This document shows positions 1,827-21,530 of a stretch of DNA of 37,417 nucleotides, in pieces. The notes below the pieces were generated by a model, which saw only the letters and a program-made list of their open reading frames with translations, was not told the origin of the DNA and made no database searches. Numbering within the stretch: the first letter of the stretch is position 1; every line of letters begins with the position of its first letter. This DNA comes from a virus, in UHGV virus genome UHGV-0367149, one strand, 5' to 3'. A program made the translations under genes and the position numbers.

Positions 1827-4298
1827 TTAAGAATCAGCCTGACTCGGGATCAGTTTTTGCCAGATAACTGAAACGTATTTTGCCTGGTAACGGGCGTCAT
1901 CAAGTGCATTATGGCGCTCACCTTCGAATGGAATAGCCGTTCTGGCATCGAAGTCTATGGCTTTCCCCAGCTCAACGATTGTGCGTACATCGCGATCGTT
2001 GTAGTAACGCCACGGGCAGGGGATCCCCTGCCGTTCGTATGAACGGCGCAAAATCGTGTTGTCGAAGTTGGCTCCATTTCCCCAGACCTGAACAAAAAAT
2101 TCACCGGAGTTTTCGTCGATAAATTCCCGCAATTGTAACAGTGCATCATCTAACGGGATTTCATCGGTCATAATGGCAGATTGCGCTTCGCGTGATTGCT
2201 TAAGCCACCATTTAATGGTGTCCCGATCAATGACTCCGCCAGCAGTTTCCAGATCGATAGTCTTACTAAATTCCGGTCCCATATCTCCGGTTTGCGGATC
2301 GAAAAATATTGCACCTATTGAGATGATCGGGGCATCAGGATTTTTTCCCATGGTTTCAAGGTCTATCATTAGATGGTCACACGTCCTGCTGGTGGATGTG
2401 ATTTCGTGATGACCGTTCACCTTAATTGAGTGATCTGCCGTCTCGCCAGTTTCATTATCGCTATCGTGATGCTGATTGCCGCCAGCATTCTCCTTGTGTG
2501 GATGTTCAGCGCCTTCCATTTTCTCCGGATCATCTTCCTGAACTTCAACCTGATACTCTTCATCGAATGTTTCTTGGTATGTTGCGTCGCCCATCACCGC
2601 GCCACAATCAGGGCAGTTGCCACCGCCGGTCTGACCGCAGGCGGTGCAGACTTTTTCCACTTCCTGATGCGCCACTGGCTCAGGCTGTTTCGTTTCTGGC
2701 TCGTTTTGTAACGCATTTGGGCTGTTTTGTTCCGCTTTTTGGTAGTTCCGTTCCGATTCATGCTGGTTCTGGTTCACAGAATCGCGGGTCTGGATCCCCT
2801 TAACCCATTTCGGATCATTCGGGTCACTAATCCCTTCAACAAATTCACCACGTGATGCAGCAAGCAACTTATCGGCGTCAGGCTGGCTGATATTGGCTGC
2901 CTGCATAATTTTGTTTACTTCGTCAGCGGTAACTTTTATCGGCTCTGGTTGTTCTGAATCTTCAGCGGTATCTACATTTTGCGGTAAGCCCGTGTATGTG
3001 CCATTTTTTCGGGCAAAATATTCTTCTTTTGTGATTTCAGTGGCGCCAGCAGCCAGTGCCTTATCCAGACCAGAAAGTTTGTTTGCGCGACCGTATTTTT
3101 CTCCGTCCTTATCTGCGAAGAGGAAATAGAACGGCCCCTCACGCTCTACAGATGGTTCAGCTTCCGGCGCGGTTTCATTTTTTGGGATATCAGATACCTC
3201 AGTTTCCACTGCATCAGTTTGTGTTTCTGATGACTGGAGAACATCAACAGTGCCCAGGTCTGTTTCTTCATTCTCAAACACGCCCTTTGTCGTCAGGTAT
3301 TCGCAGATATATTTGTTCAGTGCTATGGGATCTTTGTGAATGTCGATCGGACGCTCACGGACAAGGCCAAAAATAGTTTGGCGGTCGTAGCGAAGGGCAT
3401 CAGGCTGTTTGCGCATTGATGCCGAGATACGCTTCCAGTCTTCGCGGTCGTTGTCGATAACTTCATTTTTTGCCCAGCGATGGATGCTGCCATCAATGTT
3501 TCCGGCATCCACATCACCAGGCCAGAGAGCGTAGGCCAGTTCGTCATCCAGTGTTTTCCATGTCTGCTTGTATTCGCGATGGATGGCAGCAATGACCGGG
3601 CTGATTTTTCCTGTTGAATTTTCAGTGTACTGTTGATTGGCTCTGGCGCGGGCGAGATCAACAACAGACGTGTATTTTCCGGTTTCCTTGCGTTCACCTT
3701 CGCGACGTTTTTTCCAGATGCGCATCTCTGCCTGAATTTCGGGCCATTTAGCACCAGGAATACATTTATGCTTAACCCACCCAATGGCGTGCAACTTAAG
3801 CTCCGGATACATGGCGTTAACTTCTGGCATTTTCATCAACGCTTCAACGATATGTCCGTCGAATGTTGCCATGTCTTCCTGCAACAATTCCTGTGCGCTA
3901 ATAACCATATCAACGGTGATGTTTTCACATGTGTCGAACTTAACCATGACAGCGTTCTGTACTTCAGGGGCCAGCTTGTCAAAAGTGACGTTCATCGGAT
4001 CGGATTCAGTCTCAACCGGGACAAAAGAAGCAGACTCCTCATCCCAGCGGTTTTCCTGCATATATTCAGCATCCCATGAATCGAGGGCAGGGCGGGGTAT
4101 GCCAGGTTTATCCTCGCAGACAATAAATTTATAAGCGCAGTCCTGAGCAGCCGGATAATGTTCCAGGAATTGCCAGTGAAATTTTGCGCGGGCGCGACGT
4201 TCATCACCGGCTTCAATGGCAGTGGCTACAGCGACGGCACCTTCTTCCTTTATTGCCTGTTCGCCCGGAATGGCGGCGCAAATAAAGACTTTACTCAT
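1827..4298 (-). CDS. exodeoxyribonuclease VIII-like protein (RecE/YdfE family) with C-terminal DnaQ-like 3'-5' exonuclease domain
   Basis: 823-aa ORF. Central segment ...PDADKLLAASRGEFVEGISDPNDPKWVKGIQTRD... recalled as RecE-like. C-terminus has DEDDh-type motifs (MIDLETMG..., ...WGNGANFD..., ...HNALDDARY). A CxxC...CxxC zinc ribbon (CTACGQTGGGNCPDCG) lies between them. Confidence 0.75.
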   Translation of the reverse strand: MSKVFICAAIPGEQAIKEEGAVAVATAIEAGDERRARAKFHWQFLEHYPAAQDCAYKFIVCEDKPGIPRPALDSWDAEYMQENRWDEESASFVPVETESDPMNVTFDKLAPEVQNAVMVKFDTCENITVDMVISAQELLQEDMATFDGHIVEALMKMPEVNAMYPELKLHAIGWVKHKCIPGAKWPEIQAEMRIWKKRREGERKETGKYTSVVDLARARANQQYTENSTGKISPVIAAIHREYKQTWKTLDDELAYALWPGDVDAGNIDGSIHRWAKNEVIDNDREDWKRISASMRKQPDALRYDRQTIFGLVRERPIDIHKDPIALNKYICEYLTTKGVFENEETDLGTVDVLQSSETQTDAVETEVSDIPKNETAPEAEPSVEREGPFYFLFADKDGEKYGRANKLSGLDKALAAGATEITKEEYFARKNGTYTGLPQNVDTAEDSEQPEPIKVTADEVNKIMQAANISQPDADKLLAASRGEFVEGISDPNDPKWVKGIQTRDSVNQNQHESERNYQKAEQNSPNALQNEPETKQPEPVAHQEVEKVCTACGQTGGGNCPDCGAVMGDATYQETFDEEYQVEVQEDDPEKMEGAEHPHKENAGGNQHHDSDNETGETADHSIKVNGHHEITSTSRTCDHLMIDLETMGKNPDAPIISIGAIFFDPQTGDMGPEFSKTIDLETAGGVIDRDTIKWWLKQSREAQSAIMTDEIPLDDALLQLREFIDENSGEFFVQVWGNGANFDNTILRRSYERQGIPCPWRYYNDRDVRTIVELGKAIDFDARTAIPFEGERHNALDDARYQAKYVSVIWQKLIPSQADS

Positions 4299-8803: not shown

Positions 8804-10540
8804 AATGTCCCCAGACAATTCTCTGGGGGATTTTTCATGATCAAAGAGACTGTTACGATGAGTCATAAGGAACTCCACCGACTTCAGATTATTCAGGAGT
8901 CAATTAATCGACATATTACTCAGGAACAAGCTGCGGCACGCATTGGCATTTCTATTCGGCAGGTTAAACGTCTGGTGCAACGGTATAGAAATGAAGGGCC
9001 TTCTGGTCTGGTTTCCCACCGACGTGGAAAGCGTCCTAATAATTCCTTTTCTACTGAATTCAGAGCAACAGTAATTTCACTCCTCAAAGGCCGTTACGCT
9101 GATTTTGGACCTACGTTTGCGTGCGAAAAATTGCGCGAGATACACGGTTTATCTTTATCCGTTGAAACTCTCAGAAAGTGGATGATAGAAGAGGGGTTAT
9201 GGCGTGAACGCCGTCGTAAAATTGCCCGTATATATCAACGCCGCATGCGACGACCATCTTACGGTGAACTGATCCAGATTGATGGCTCACCTCATGACTG
9301 GTTTGAAAATCGAGGCCCCAGATGTACACTGATCGTTTTCATTGATGATGCCACCAGTGCGTTGATGGCGTTGCGTTTTGTGCCTGCTGAAACAACCCGG
9401 GCTTACATGGAAACCCTCCGGGGTTACCTTAATGATCATGGCGTACCGCTCGCTCTCTACTCTGATAGACACAGTATATTCAGGGTAAATAACCCAGAGC
9501 GGGAAGGTGAGCTGACCCAGTTCACTCGTGCGATAAAGACACTGGGCATCGAGCCAATCCATGCCAACAGCCCGCAGGCAAAAGGGCGGGTAGAGCGCGC
9601 CAATCAGACACTACAGGACAGGCTGGTCAAAGAAATGCGGCTTCAGAATATCAGTGATATTGAAACAGCAAATGCATGGTTGCCGACCTTTATTGAAGCC
9701 TATAACAACCGGTTCGCTACGTCGCCTCATACTACTGATAATGCTCATCTTGATGTGCACCATTCTGAAGAGGAACTGGGTTATATCTTCAGCCTACAGG
9801 CGAAGCGCGTTCTGTCTAAAAATCTCACTTTCCAGTACAAAAGCAGTGCGTTTCAGGTACGCAGTGAGGGCCGGGGATATCGACTTAGGCATTCGGTTGT
9901 TACTGTATGTGAGAACTTTGACGGTGAAATTAACGTTCTGTATGACGGGAAAGCGCTGGGCTGGGAAAAGTATGTTGATGGCCCGGAGCCTATACCACTG
10001 GATGATGAAAAGAGTGTCCATGAACGAGTGGATAATGCCCGTATTGATTTACGCTCAAAATACTATGTTAAATCTAAAGCTGACCATCCCTGGCTTACGC
10101 GCCGAACGCAAAGTCATCAGCAAGTTAAGCCCCCGAAGTTACCTAAAAAGAAGCCTGATCCCGATAAAATAGATTGAAACCAAGATCGATTCGGTTGAGT
10201 GCATATCCATTCATAGGGTAGATTCTTAAGTCGCGTTTCTGGTGTTCATTTTCGGGTGGTTTGTTACTTGTTTTACCGGGGATATGCCAGAAACGCGCTG
10301 AGTCAGTCTGGGCGGTGCGCGTAATGAGGCGTTATGGTAAATAGCCTATGCTAATGTCCGCTAAGAGCAAGAAGCGGAAGTTGGCAGTTTTGTGGACTGT
10401 CCCCACAAAAGTGACTACAGAAATAGTTGCAATTCATAATTGATCATGGGTTGTCAGTTAAACTCGTGGCGATTTAAATAGACTAATTGGGAGGGCGTCC
10501 ATTACTTATATCTTGTAATGTTAACTATCAGAAATGATAC
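8780..10540 (+). mobile_element. insertion sequence (single-ORF DDE transposase, IS481/ISNCY-like); ends not resolved
   Basis: Transposase ORF 8837-10177 plus about 350 bp of non-phage-like flank. I could not identify terminal inverted repeats or a target-site duplication by eye, so the boundaries are approximate. Confidence 0.4.
8837..10177 (+). CDS. IS transposase (N-terminal HTH, rve/DDE integrase core)
   Basis: 446-aa ORF. N-terminal HTH (...AAARIGISIRQVKRLVQRY...). Candidate DDE triad in ...LIQIDGSPHDW..., ...ALYSDRHSIF..., ...AKGRVERANQTLQ... Confidence 0.85.
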   Translation: MIKETVTMSHKELHRLQIIQESINRHITQEQAAARIGISIRQVKRLVQRYRNEGPSGLVSHRRGKRPNNSFSTEFRATVISLLKGRYADFGPTFACEKLREIHGLSLSVETLRKWMIEEGLWRERRRKIARIYQRRMRRPSYGELIQIDGSPHDWFENRGPRCTLIVFIDDATSALMALRFVPAETTRAYMETLRGYLNDHGVPLALYSDRHSIFRVNNPEREGELTQFTRAIKTLGIEPIHANSPQAKGRVERANQTLQDRLVKEMRLQNISDIETANAWLPTFIEAYNNRFATSPHTTDNAHLDVHHSEEELGYIFSLQAKRVLSKNLTFQYKSSAFQVRSEGRGYRLRHSVVTVCENFDGEINVLYDGKALGWEKYVDGPEPIPLDDEKSVHERVDNARIDLRSKYYVKSKADHPWLTRRTQSHQQVKPPKLPKKKPDPDKID

Positions 10541-18321: not shown

Positions 18322-18683
18322 GGTAATATTAAATCGGAACATTTACATCGCGGAATGTAAAATTTAAATAAAAAGGACTCTTCCATGAGCCAAAATTCCT
18401 GAAATCTTAAGGGTAAGATAAAAGGTCTTAATCAGAATGACACGTTTTATTAATAAATAAAGCTATTCTTTCATTGCTGTGTTTTTCTTTACAAAAGTAA
18501 TCCTTGCCATGGGTGGTTAATCATGCGTTAATGGTGTTCTGGTTTGTTACAAATTTATCTGAAGCAGTCATTGTTATAATTTTATTATTTGTACCTCTTG
18601 AGATTTCCTTGTTGGTTTTTCTCTCTGATATTTTTTTTCGGACCATTCTGCCCAAGGGCTAATTTCTTCAAAAGGTAATAATT

Positions 18684-18896
18684 ATGTCTAACAAAATGAC
18701 TGGTTTAGTGAAATGGTTTAACCCTGAAAAAGGTTTTGGTTTCATCACGCCGAAAGATGGCAGCAAAGATGTGTTTGTCCATTTCTCAGCAATTCAGAGC
18801 AACGATTTCAAAACATTAACTGAGAATCAGGAAGTTGAATTTGGTATTGAGAACGGACCTAAAGGTCCTGCCGCTGTTCATGTAGTGGCGCTTTGA
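18684..18896 (+). CDS. cspI: cold-shock protein CspI
   Basis: 70-aa [73 protein letters not shown]. Long upstream untranslated region (18322-18683), typical of cold-shock genes. Confidence 0.85.
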
Positions 18897-19102
18897 GGTA
18901 GACAATATTACAAACCATATTCACTTTAGATGCCCGTGTTGTCATGGTTCCCAGTATAGAACATCATCTTTTGATGTTTCTGACATGAATCCTTTCGGGG
19001 CAAAATGTATCTTTTGTAAATCAATGATGATTACATTTGATAATATTTCACAATACTTAAATGCCAGCCGTCTGTCGTTGGATTTAAAAAAGTGAAAATG
19101 AA

Positions 19103-19124
19103 GGCTCCTTCGGGAGCTTTTTTG
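19103..19124 (+). terminator. intrinsic terminator downstream of cspI
   Basis: GGCTCCTTCGGGAGCTTTTTTGC: hairpin plus T-tract. Confidence 0.5.
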
Positions 19125-19167
19125 CTTGGTGTCTATTCGATGGATACTCACATACTACGGTAACATC

Positions 19168-19398
19168 ATGAAAAAAATCATAGTTTTTTTTAACTCTGAA
19201 CCAGCAGTGGTAGTGCCAGCGATGACTGGAGTTAACACCATCATGCGTGAATATCCAAATGGCGAAAAAACACACCTTACTGTAATGGCCGCAGGGTTTC
19301 CATCTCTGACCGGAGATCATAAAGTCATTTATGTAGCCGCGGATCGACATGTTACTTCAGAAGAAATTCTGGAAGCAGCAATAAGGCTCTTGAGTTGA
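19168..19398 (+). CDS. hypothetical small protein (ynfN position)
   Basis: ATG at 19168 (MKKIIVFFNSEPAVVVPAMTGVNTIMREYPNGEKTHLTVMAAGF...), 76 aa. Lies between cspI and gnsB. The ORF track begins at an upstream TTG (19126). Confidence 0.4.
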   Translation: MKKIIVFFNSEPAVVVPAMTGVNTIMREYPNGEKTHLTVMAAGFPSLTGDHKVIYVAADRHVTSEEILEAAIRLLS

Positions 19399-19566: not shown

Positions 19567-19743
19567 ATGATGAATATTGAAAACTTAAAAACAAAAGCAG
19601 AAGCAGATATTTCTGAATATATAACAAAAAAAATTATTGAACTTAAGAAAAAGACCGGGAAAGAAGTTACCAGTATTCAGTTTACCGCACGGGAAAAAAT
19701 GACGGGTCTTGAAAGCTATGATGTCAAGATTAATTTAATCTGA
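19567..19743 (+). CDS. gnsB: GnsB (GnsA/GnsB family small protein)
   Basis: Not in the ORF track. ATG at 19567 (or 19570) to TGA at 19741-19743: MMNIENLKTKAEADISEYITKKIIELKKKTGKEVTSIQFTAREKMTGLESYDVKINLI, recalled as GnsB-like. GAGGAAA upstream. Confidence 0.72.
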   Translation: MMNIENLKTKAEADISEYITKKIIELKKKTGKEVTSIQFTAREKMTGLESYDVKINLI

Positions 19744-19894
19744 TGTATTCAATAATAAAATTTATCCATAAACCTCGTTTTTACGGGGTTTTGTTATATT
19801 TGAATGGTTCCGAATATCTAAATCACAATTGTTGATGGTTTTTATTAAACCAATGCAGTCCGGCTCAGGAGTGAGAGAAGCCGGACGTTATGGT

Positions 19895-20305
19895 TTAGCG
19901 TGGTAAGATCTGTGTAGTTTTCTGGATGCTTTCAGTAAATAGTAATGAATTATCAAAGGTATAGTAATATCTTTTTTGTTCGTGGATATTTGTAACCCAC
20001 CGAAAAACTCCTGCTTTAGCAAGGTTTCTTCTGTATTCCTGAAATGTGATCTCTCTGGATTTCAGCTTATTAGAGGTCGTTTCTATAAGATGCCTATCCT
20101 TTGAAAATTTGACAGACACAATGTTTTTTAGGCCCTTTAATAACACTGTATTATCATTTTTTAATACAATATGAACATTCTCTGTGGCTAAATAGTAAAT
20201 GTAATGTGAGACATTGTGACGTTTTAGCTCAGAATAAAACCATTGATAGTTTAAATCGTTTCGAACTTTATCAAATATTTGTTTAAAAATGACTACCTGA
20301 TCCAT
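19895..20305 (-). CDS. ydfO: YdfO (DUF1398) protein
   Basis: 136-aa product from the ATG at 20305 ([59 protein letters not shown]...), recalled as K-12 YdfO. Confidence 0.75.
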
Positions 20306-20362
20306 AGATAAACCTTCCATGTGATATGATGGGGCGTAGTCTGCACGATTATCTAAATTGCT

Positions 20363-20596
20363 TCAATCTGGTCTGACCTGTTTTCTGAGCAATTCAGTAA
20401 TGTCACTCTTTTCTTTGTTTGCTTCAGGCGAAACTCTTTTTTCTGAGCACAGTCTCCGGCGGCAGGCTTCAATGACCCAGGCTGAGAAATTCCCAGACCC
20501 TTTTTGCTCAAGAGCGATGTTAATTTGTTCAATCATTTGGTTAGGAAAGCGGATGTTGCGGGTTGTTGTTCTGCGGGTTCTGTTCTTCGTTGACAT
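20363..20596 (-). CDS. ynfO: YnfO, small basic protein with ribbon-helix-helix-like N-terminal region
   Basis: 77-aa ORF. The segment TRNIRFPNQMIEQINIALEQKGSGNFSAWVIEACRRRL fits a beta-strand, helix, helix RHH pattern (Arc/CopG-like). Lies 57 nt upstream of ydfO on the same strand. Confidence 0.6.
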   Translation of the reverse strand: MSTKNRTRRTTTRNIRFPNQMIEQINIALEQKGSGNFSAWVIEACRRRLCSEKRVSPEANKEKSDITELLRKQVRPD

Positions 20597-20795
20597 GAGG
20601 TTGTCCCGTATTCAGTGTCGCTGATTTGTATTGTCTGAAGTTGTTTTTACGTTAAGTTGATGCAGATCAATTAATACGATACCTGCGTCATAATTGATTA
20701 TTTGACGTGGTTTGATGGAGTAGATGCACGTTGTGACATGTAGATGATAATTATTATCATTTTGCGGGTCCTTTCCGGCGATCCGACAGGTTACG

Positions 20796-20807
20796 GGGCG
20801 GCGACCT
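20796..20807 (+). other. cosN cohesive-end site (lambda-type 12-nt GGGCGGCGACCT), with cosQ/cosB flanks at about 20740-20984
   Basis: ...ATCCGACAGGTTACG|GGGCGGCGACCTCGCGGGTTTTCGCTATTTATGAAAATTTTCCGG... matches the lambda right-end/left-end junction as recalled. The nu1 start lies 189 nt downstream, as in lambda. Confidence 0.85.
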
Positions 20808-20984: not shown

Positions 20985-21504
20985 ATGGAAGTCAACAAAA
21001 AGCAGCTGGCTGACATTTTCGGTGCGAGTATCCGTACCATTCAGAACTGGCAGGAACAGGGAATGCCCGTTCTGCGAGGCGGTGGCAAGGGTAATGAGGT
21101 GCTTTATGACTCTGCCGCCGTTATAAGATGGTATGCCGAAAGGGATGCTGAAATTGAGAACGAAAAGCTGCGCCGGGAAGTTGAAGAACTGCGGCAGGCC
21201 AGCGAGGCAGATCTCCAGCCAGGGACTATTGAGTACGAACGCCATCGACTTACGCGTGCGCAGGCCGACGCACAGGAACTGAAGAATGCCAGAGACTCCG
21301 CTGAAGTGGTGGAAACCGCATTCTGTACTTTCGTGCTGTCGCGGATCGCAGGTGAAATTGCCAGTATTCTCGACGGGATCCCCCTGTCGGTGCAGCGGCG
21401 TTTTCCGGAACTGGAAAACCGACATGTTGATTTCCTGAAACGGGATATCATCAAAGCCATGAACAAAGCAGCCGCGCTGGATGAACTGATACCGGGGTTG
21501 CTGA

Positions 21505-21530
<26 letters not shown>
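20985..21530 (+). CDS. nu1: terminase small subunit Nu1
   Basis: 181 aa MEVNKKQLADIFGASIRTIQNWQEQGMPVLRGGGKGNEVLYDSAAV..., near-identical to lambda gpNu1 as recalled. Confidence 0.95.

Follow-up and report, generated by a model that had tools for sequence, protein, structure and literature searches.

The Arc and Mnt proteins of P22 are small and basic, about 50-80 aa in length, and are built from an N-[IL]-R-[FW]-P strand motif, a helix A, a glycine turn and a helix B. The YnfO protein considered here is predicted to be of the same general build, and its gene lies antisense within a late-gene region, as does mnt in P22. Unlike P22, lambda and Qin possess no ant gene to control, and the sequence similarity of YnfO to Arc and Mnt is marginal (P about 0.003-0.006). 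Ribbon-helix-helix (RHH) proteins are also represented among the antitoxins, for instance M. tuberculosis MazE4, MazE6 and MazE7, TacA, ParD and the C-terminal domain of HicB; in comparison with these, YnfO has neither a conserved toxin-binding tail nor a partner and is mostly solitary. For the neighbouring gene, ydfO, the lambda morons bor and lom provide the closest parallel. They are low in GC, carry their own leader and 3' hairpin, lie antisense between backbone genes, are expressed from the prophage and are non-essential lytically, and ydfO resembles them in its sequence features and placement and probably also in its expression and dispensability; however, bor and lom encode outer-membrane or lipoprotein virulence factors, whereas YdfO is a soluble cytoplasmic protein.

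[quoted passage not shown] Further counterparts are ylcI and ybcV of DLP12 and, in lambda, p78 (a ybcV homolog) together with a ylcI-like ORF for which the classical lambda record has no annotation. Compared with lambda and DLP12, the copy studied here lacks the ybcW insertion, and the prophage that carries it keeps the full set of morphogenesis genes. Both genes are already known and named members of the y-ome, with the paralogs ylcI, ybcV and ycgX and a lambda counterpart. The 2024 y-ome review still lists ynfO and ydfO as uncharacterised (PMC11551758), which bears out the statement in the original prediction that neither gene had a defined function. The results of the current analysis allow us to propose, with a probability of roughly three in four, that the locus consists of two independent accessory units, an Arc-like regulator and a DUF1398 moron, which abut in a Qin/lambda-like prophage, in the interval from the lysis genes to cos.

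Position and gene content of the locus

The window, by which we mean the whole stretch of 37,417 nucleotides that was analysed (UHGV virus genome UHGV-0367149), is a Qin/lambda-like prophage with an integrase, a repressor, Q, a lysis cassette and cold-shock cargo that includes a cspA-type thermoregulator. After the cold-shock cargo the order is gnsB, ydfO, ynfO, cos, terminase and the head and tail genes, and the RefSeq labels for the matching region are ynfO/ydfO in a Qin-like prophage. The features that define the locus are:

20363-20596, minus strand: ynfO coding sequence; 77 aa, pI 10.6, DUF3950, YlcI/YnfO family
19895-20305, minus strand: ydfO coding sequence; 136 aa, pI 9.75, DUF1398, a soluble basic protein with no hydrophobic segment
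20796-20807, plus strand: cosN core GGGCGGCGACCT, identical to lambda cosN in the alignment with the lambda right end; border between the accessory region and the packaging genes
20985-21530, plus strand: nohA/nu1, small terminase subunit gene (Phage_Nu1, E 5.6e-101); first packaging gene, divergent from ynfO

The upstream gene of the two is ynfO, which lies about 200 bp from cosN and is separated from ydfO by 57 nt. The positions and sizes of both reading frames, their minus-strand orientation and the 57-nt gap are exactly as first described. A second in-frame ATG at 20320 would give a YdfO of 141 aa; the start at 20305 is favoured, since in lambda the ATG at 20320 is out of frame. With cosN at 20796-20807 and nu1/nohA beginning at 20985, the two genes are close to cos and run antisense to the late operon. 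The GC content is 0.32-0.43 across the ynfO/ydfO stretch and 0.32-0.35 over ydfO, against 0.52-0.56 in the terminase genes nu1 and A, so that the base composition of ydfO is unlike that of the flanking backbone genes, as is typical of a moron. The earlier description of the pair as accessory cargo transcribed against the late operon next to cos is upheld. Rfam and tRNA scans of the region detected nothing beyond the cspA thermoregulator belonging to cspI.

The assignment of both proteins to their families is clear. YnfO matches Pfam DUF3950 (PF13132) with 75.6 bits (E 2.8e-21; cut-off 25) and the NCBIfam family YlcI_YnfO_N (NF041551) with 36.7 bits (cut-off 30), and YdfO matches DUF1398 (PF07166) with 157.7 bits (E 1.5e-46; cut-off 22). 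YdfO is also identical at 135 of 136 positions (99%) to the E. coli K-12 YdfO whose NMR structure was deposited as PDB 2HH8. Between lambda-type and Stx-type copies of the RHH core, pS is 0.47-0.67 and pN is 0.05-0.09 (pN/pS about 0.09-0.17), and for ydfO compared with lambda ybcV pN/pS is about 0.24. These substitution ratios indicate that ynfO and ydfO are real genes under purifying selection.

The N-terminus of YnfO, its tail and the upstream spacer

Two parts can be distinguished in YnfO:

20441-20596, minus strand: conserved, putatively Arc-like RHH core, codons 1 to about 52; the first ~50 residues are near-invariant among homologs
within ynfO, minus strand: lineage-specific tail, codons 55-77, which arises at a mosaic junction

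In an RHH fold about 45 residues accommodate a beta-strand and two helices, A and B, joined by a turn of the G-x-(S/T/N) type, and the N-terminal part of YnfO shows this layout. In the AF2 model residues 1-18 are extended and residues 19-32 and 34-54 form helices, with a pLDDT of about 82-85. The segment N14-I-R-F-P...G33 aligns without gaps and in register with N11-L-R-W-P...G30 of Arc (Arc residues 10-30; the Arc probe sequence was confirmed from the PDB), and the same segment aligns without gaps to residues 8-28 of Mnt, with a shared N-x-R-x-P motif and turn glycine. The similarity to Arc and Mnt reaches a z of about 4 over shuffles and a local P of 0.006 in hhalign, which is a marginal level (P about 0.003-0.006). 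Sequence and profile searches of the PDB with YnfO gave no match. A Foldseek search of the AF2 model against the PDB and BFVD gave no significant match either, a result that is uninformative because a domain of about 45 residues must dimerise and the tail is floppy. The ribbon-helix-helix character of the YnfO N-terminus, part of the original prediction, is moderately supported by the predicted helices together with the Arc/Mnt alignment.

Two observations on the N-terminal region bear on the proposal, contained in the same prediction, that the pair forms a type II toxin-antitoxin module. Most of the closest structural neighbours of the YnfO model belong to the RHH antitoxins, and YnfO has a weak HicB-like match in PHROGs (E 0.009); both lean towards that proposal. 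The predominance of antitoxins among the neighbours is, however, largely an effect of which RHH proteins have been solved, and it is no evidence that YnfO belongs with them. Against the proposal stands the variability of the C-terminus, as YnfO homologs diverge beyond residue ~50 into at least six unrelated tail classes and so present no conserved toxin-binding region. In the window the tail is encoded by a 54-nt junction segment and by part of the leader of ydfO. Since homology to lambda stops after codon 54, and in agreement with the at least six tail classes, the tail is a by-product of the junction, made of whatever the ORF reads into.

Lambda-type and HNH-type phages were compared upstream of the start codon of the RHH gene in search of a common operator, and no shared sequence was found. 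The spacer between ynfO and nohA contains the following site:

20745-20759, divergent ynfO-nohA spacer: perfect 7-1-7 Fur box TGATAATtATTATCA; one match in the window, 0 expected by chance

The Fur box lies just to the left of cosQ/cosN and upstream of both genes, at a distance of 156 nt from the ATG of ynfO and of 233 nt from that of nohA. It is found at the equivalent position in 145 of 151 loci of the lambda-cos type and is absent from the HNH-type phages. It is the published K-12 'nohA' site at -233, for which binding of Fur was demonstrated in vivo, in a titration assay, as well as by gel shift (PMC2189734). At the time of its assignment to nohA, ynfO had not yet been annotated, and the site could equally serve the leftward ynfO transcript. 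The better promoter-like match in the spacer, GTGACA-16-TATCAT, points towards nohA.

The ydfO unit and its product

The comparison with lambda delimits two blocks of homology. The first, at 95%, extends from cos to codon 54 of YnfO (window 20830 to 20434), and the second, at 84%, starts 74 nt upstream of the ydfO ATG (20379 to 19876) and reaches past the ydfO stop, to about +60 by alignment of the trailer. The segment that lies between them is unique to the Qin-type arrangement, and its counterpart in lambda is a stretch of 613 nt holding the ylcI tail and ybcW. The elements recognised in this part of the locus are:

20380-20433, minus strand: 54-nt segment unique to the Qin-type arrangement, between the two lambda-homologous blocks
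20378-20391 and 20436-20449: 14-nt direct repeat TGCTCAGAAAA(A/C)AG, which brackets the 54-nt junction segment
20306-20379, minus strand: conserved 74-nt ydfO leader, which moves with the DUF1398 ORF
20370-20378: palindrome GGTCAGACC in the ydfO leader, reported in K-12 as a PdhR-box-like site
20361-20366 and 20338-20343, minus strand: candidate ydfO promoter, TTGAAG and CAGACT with a 17-nt spacer, read by eye
20313-20318, minus strand: ydfO Shine-Dalgarno sequence GGAAGG, in the leader
19846-19897, minus strand: stable stem-loop directly 3' of the ydfO stop, between the convergent ydfO and gnsB

As the homology to lambda breaks at codon 54 and resumes 74 nt before ydfO, ydfO brings its own leader and its own 3' hairpin. 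The leader is kept in lambda and in phage Tritos, where ybcW and not ynfO is the upstream gene, and in the window the ynfO stop codon (20363-20365) falls inside the leader block. The hairpin has a predicted energy of -21.9 kcal/mol (z = -4.65), an equally good fold occurred in 0 of 200 shuffles, and its stem is kept in lambda with a different loop; it is likely to be the 3' end of the ydfO unit. A 5' leader with a predicted promoter and a 3' hairpin, both moving with the ORF, are features of a moron, and ydfO has them.

Several observations count against a division of the locus into two units. The two genes are neighbours in the same orientation with 57 nt between them, no terminator-like structure was found between ynfO and ydfO in the Qin-type arrangement, and this arrangement recurs in hundreds of near-identical copies. 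In addition, a sigma-70 promoter scan of the minus strand upstream of ynfO and of ydfO returned nothing above threshold, the hexamers proposed for ydfO being weaker than that. It is therefore possible that, in the Qin-type arrangement, ynfO and ydfO are co-transcribed and that YnfO regulates ydfO. An IS1 element in the best E. coli match was considered as a natural ynfO knockout and set aside, as it sits between gnsB and ydfO.

The sequence of YdfO gives no sign of an enzyme. In DUF1398 the residues L27, T41 and G99 are invariant and Y35, N43, A96, W103 and Y114 are nearly so, and the alignment contains no invariant acidic, His, Lys or Cys residue. Searches with YdfO in Pfam, NCBIfam, PHROGs and PADLOC returned only DUF1398 or 'unknown' and no toxin family, and a search of the PDB with the DUF1398 profile returned 2HH8 only. 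The toxin-like character that had been envisaged for YdfO finds no footing in these results, as neither a known toxin fold or family nor catalytic-type residues were detected by sequence searches and conservation. The absence of catalytic-type conservation suggests a binding protein, and the most likely role of YdfO would be to modulate the stress physiology of the host by binding and not by catalysis. DUF1398 also goes under the labels 'head protein' (PHROG) and 'putative envelope protein' (legacy); both were rejected, the protein being soluble with no signal or transmembrane segment and lambda p78 being non-essential. The AF2 model of YdfO (pLDDT 47, from a shallow alignment of homologs all at least 71% identical) was judged unusable.

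In K-12 the family is transcribed from defective prophages, and previous work on its expression is consistent with host control. PdhR binds near ybcV and ydfO, and deletion of pdhR lowers ybcV mRNA 10-fold, i.e. PdhR acts as an activator (PMC7660256). Expression of ydfO is induced by ionic liquid (PMC4077768), a response of ydfO/ybcV transcripts to DicC induction has been reported, and ybcV has been reported to be strongly down-regulated under copper stress. Overexpression of ydfO is reported to raise resistance to oxidative stress (Wang et al. 2010, as cited in PMC4077768). Lambda p78, the DUF1398/ybcV homolog, was non-essential in a CRISPRi screen (PMC10695390). On the side of the RHH gene, K-12 ylcI is transcribed, convergent with ybcW (PMC12288877).

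Separate distribution of the two families and its consequences

If YnfO and YdfO acted as a pair, the two families would be expected to occur together. By tblastn, the RHH core was found in 153 phage records and DUF1398 in 43, and among the 5,426 complete E. coli genomes the RHH core is present in 4,184 (77%) and DUF1398 in 5,248 (97%). In BP-4795, Stx2a_WGPS2, Lys8385Vzw and two further tail variants, the DUF3950 gene stands alone on its strand, with no DUF1398 and no same-strand gene downstream. In this Stx-type context it is convergent with the lysis genes and 41 nt away, divergently, from an HNH endonuclease gene, which is followed by a non-Nu1 terminase. A divergent RHH homolog of 59 aa is likewise solitary in the 10.7-kb Pasteurella element/satellite Pmp7, and a 2026 paper lists YlcI/YnfO proteins in cf-PICIs and does not mention DUF1398.

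The separation is also apparent from the side of DUF1398. A narrower DUF1398 alignment was used to retrieve 20 distant loci from Kluyvera, Pseudocitrobacter, Klebsiella, Salmonella and Raoultella, whose flanks are varied and mostly non-phage; neither a YnfO-like ORF (E<=10) nor a small upstream gene on the same strand was present at any of the 20. In E. coli, ycgX is a solitary DUF1398 paralog with bluR as its neighbour. The IMG/VR contig L177 has, in addition to ybcW and a different small terminase, an allele of ydfO that is 96% identical to the present one; neither the RHH gene nor a lambda cos lies within 3.5 kb of it. Lambda, phage 4W, Tritos and DLP12 have both families, and there ybcV and the ylcI-like gene are kept apart by ybcW, a gene of the opposite strand. 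The Qin-type adjacency is found in hundreds of IMG/VR contigs, and the best 80 loci there are all near-identical Qin-type copies, a sample that serves for a census of arrangements and not for co-occurrence. Each gene thus occurs without the other across phages and genomes, which argues that ynfO and ydfO are neighbouring accessory genes, uncoupled in both directions, and not a toxin-antitoxin or defence pair.

These observations, taken from sequence comparison, form the basis of a model in which the two units act separately. The product of ynfO, which is small and very basic, would bind DNA, and its first ~50 residues may adopt an Arc/Mnt-like RHH fold. It would be encoded by a solitary gene, antisense in the late operon just before the packaging genes, in many cos-type phages and in some satellites. 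YnfO is probably a dimeric transcriptional regulator that is expressed in the lysogen, and its gene would probably be silenced once late transcription crosses it from the opposite direction. As for ydfO, we envisage a self-contained, low-GC moron with a leader of ~74 nt, which presumably includes its promoter, and a 3' hairpin. It would be expressed from the repressed prophage under the control of the host (PdhR and stress signals), would be dispensable for lytic growth, and may serve to modulate host stress physiology.

Of the other readings, the one that survives best is a looser unit of regulator and target, with no toxin-antitoxin logic, in which YnfO autoregulates and also controls ydfO, for example through the GGTCAGACC palindrome. 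The adjacency of the genes on one strand with no terminator between them is in keeping with such a unit, as is the conservation of the palindrome in the ydfO leader, and an RHH gene is nearby in every DUF1398 phage neighbourhood examined except that of L177 (a subset of the 43 records). However, most RHH-bearing phages have neither DUF1398 nor the ydfO leader, so that the RHH protein must have its primary target at another site; experiments already support PdhR as a host ligand of the palindrome (PMC7660256); and other DUF1398 genes have no RHH gene nearby. We consider this reading unlikely.

Appreciably less probable is a role in anti-phage defence or superinfection exclusion, whereby one or both genes would shield the lysogen from other phages. 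Such a role would suit low-GC genes that lie antisense to the late genes in a moron hotspot and are probably expressed in the lysogen, and the loss of ydfO was, anecdotally, among the changes in one spontaneous phage-resistant APEC mutant (PMC8711792). Neither protein matched any family in PADLOC at E<=10, i.e. no known defence system was recognised, DUF1398 carries no enzymatic signature, no defence island surrounds ycgX or the distant homologs, which are ordinary genes of the chromosome, and no experimental report of defence activity was found in the literature.

The least credible reading, to which we attach hardly any weight, is the type II toxin-antitoxin module of the original prediction, in which YdfO would be a growth-inhibiting toxin and YnfO the RHH antitoxin, which would both neutralise YdfO and autoregulate the operon: a gene for a small basic RHH protein is indeed followed on its strand, after 57 nt with no terminator, by a ~130-aa gene, yet the 74-nt ydfO leader is also present where ynfO is not upstream, DUF1398 persists alone (ycgX, the 20 enterobacterial loci, the 96%-identical allele of L177), in most of the phages that carry it the RHH gene stands alone, lambda places ybcW between the two genes, the YnfO tail is non-conserved and draws part of its coding sequence from the ydfO leader block, no acidic, His, Lys or Cys residue is invariant in DUF1398, neither PADLOC nor any toxin family gave a match, and YdfO was overproduced in E. 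coli for 2HH8, from which we infer that it is not toxic, its overexpression being reported as protective in the work cited in PMC4077768. The uncoupled families, the ybcW gene between them in lambda, the leader and hairpin that belong to ydfO itself, the non-conserved tail and the lack of a PADLOC match speak against any two-gene toxin-antitoxin or defence module, and follow-up effort on an idea that came from gene layout can be spared.

The two-unit reading, an Arc-like regulator beside a DUF1398 moron, gives both genes a different significance. They are widespread, the RHH core being present in 77% and DUF1398 in 97% of the 5,426 complete E. coli genomes, and are maintained under purifying selection. 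At its most far-reaching, and here we offer a long shot, YnfO/YlcI could be an overlooked, conserved, Arc-like lysogen regulator of lambda- and HNH-type cos phages, placed antisense at the lysis/packaging junction and gated by a Fur box in the lambda-type phages, that controls something central, for instance leaky expression of terminase or late genes at the cos site of the prophage, or what becomes of related phages that enter the cell; independently of this, DUF1398 could represent a new class of host-physiology modulators under the control of PdhR, i.e. of pyruvate sensing. As working hypotheses, ydfO/ybcV/ycgX may be regarded as a family of autonomous, host-regulated morons, and ynfO/ylcI as a solitary regulator of the Arc type that belongs with the packaging end of cos phages, among them lambda. 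The interest that the locus retains lies in a conserved and largely unannotated gene, with an RHH-like product, beside cos in the lambda-type phages.

RHH genes in lambda and related phages

The genome of lambda itself codes for a YlcI/YnfO-type RHH protein, approximately 200 bp from the right cos end, and homologs lie in phage 4W and in the Pasteurella phage Pmp7.

Lambda J02459, about 48110-48304, minus strand: YlcI/YnfO-type RHH gene, 64 aa
L001 (phage 4W locus), 2587-2781: YlcI/YnfO-type RHH gene, 64 aa
L006 (Pmp7, OR544138.1), 3001-3180, plus strand: YnfO homolog, 59 aa, antisense to a 224-aa ORF

The 64-aa gene of lambda is under purifying selection. At the place of the match, several RefSeq phage records show no annotated feature, and neither does the classical lambda entry J02459. 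This gap in annotation suggests that the gene was left out of the CRISPRi screen by which gene essentiality in lambda was mapped. In Pmp7, the 224-aa ORF opposite the homolog is annotated as a 'transcriptional repressor'; its sequence resembles antisense junk, which argues that this annotation was probably placed on the wrong strand.

In the HNH-terminase-type phages, antirepressor-type genes (Ant, Rha) set inside the lysis region lie within 1-2 kb of the solitary RHH gene.

L003 (HNH-terminase-type phage), 3712-4281: solitary-RHH neighbourhood with antirepressor-type gene
L005 (HNH-terminase-type phage), 1471-2022: solitary-RHH neighbourhood with antirepressor-type gene

This proximity of an RHH gene and an antirepressor-type gene resembles the immI region of P22 (mnt/arc/ant). 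Lambda and the window lack an antirepressor-type gene of this kind.

DUF1398 labels and neighbouring cargo

DUF1398 proteins, including p78 of lambda (NC_001416), are labelled 'head protein' in PHROGs (PHROG 413) and RefSeq phage records, and 'putative envelope protein' in older records. Both labels were rejected, as the sequence supports neither: the protein has no signal segment and no transmembrane segment, its gene is oriented antisense to the late operon, and in lambda this gene is non-essential (p78; PMC10695390).

Window 18538-19398 and 19567-19743, plus strand: cargo block of cspI, ymcF, ynfR, ynfN and gnsB

Within this block, cspI carries a complete cspA-type RNA thermoregulator (Rfam RF01766, 112.8 bits). 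The GnsA/GnsB family is labelled in Pfam and NCBI as the toxin of a toxin-antitoxin system, and gnsB is convergent with ydfO, the two sharing a hairpin region (19770-19897). Should the surrounding genes include a toxin-antitoxin-like one at all, it would be gnsB and not ydfO.

Prophage state, the ynfO-ydfO junction and a Fur box

Window 8837-10177, plus strand: transposase-like ORF (HTH_28/HTH_29/rve_3 domains)
Window 20378-20391 and 20436-20449, minus strand: 14-nt direct repeat TGCTCAGAAAA(A/C)AG
Window 20745-20759, between cosQ/cosN and ynfO: perfect 7-1-7 Fur box TGATAATtATTATCA

The transposase-like ORF splits the early region between the repressor and Q regions, and the prophage may therefore be defective, though its late genes look complete. 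The repeat copies flank the segment that stands in for the 613 nt of lambda containing ybcW; their position at both segment edges suggests that the Qin-type ynfO-ydfO junction is a product of microhomology recombination. The Fur box, only 156 nt upstream of ynfO, is the counterpart of the published 'nohA' site at -233, where Fur binding was observed experimentally (PMC2189734) and which was assigned when ynfO had no annotation. Regulation by the box may run rightward, towards cos/nohA, or leftward, towards ynfO.
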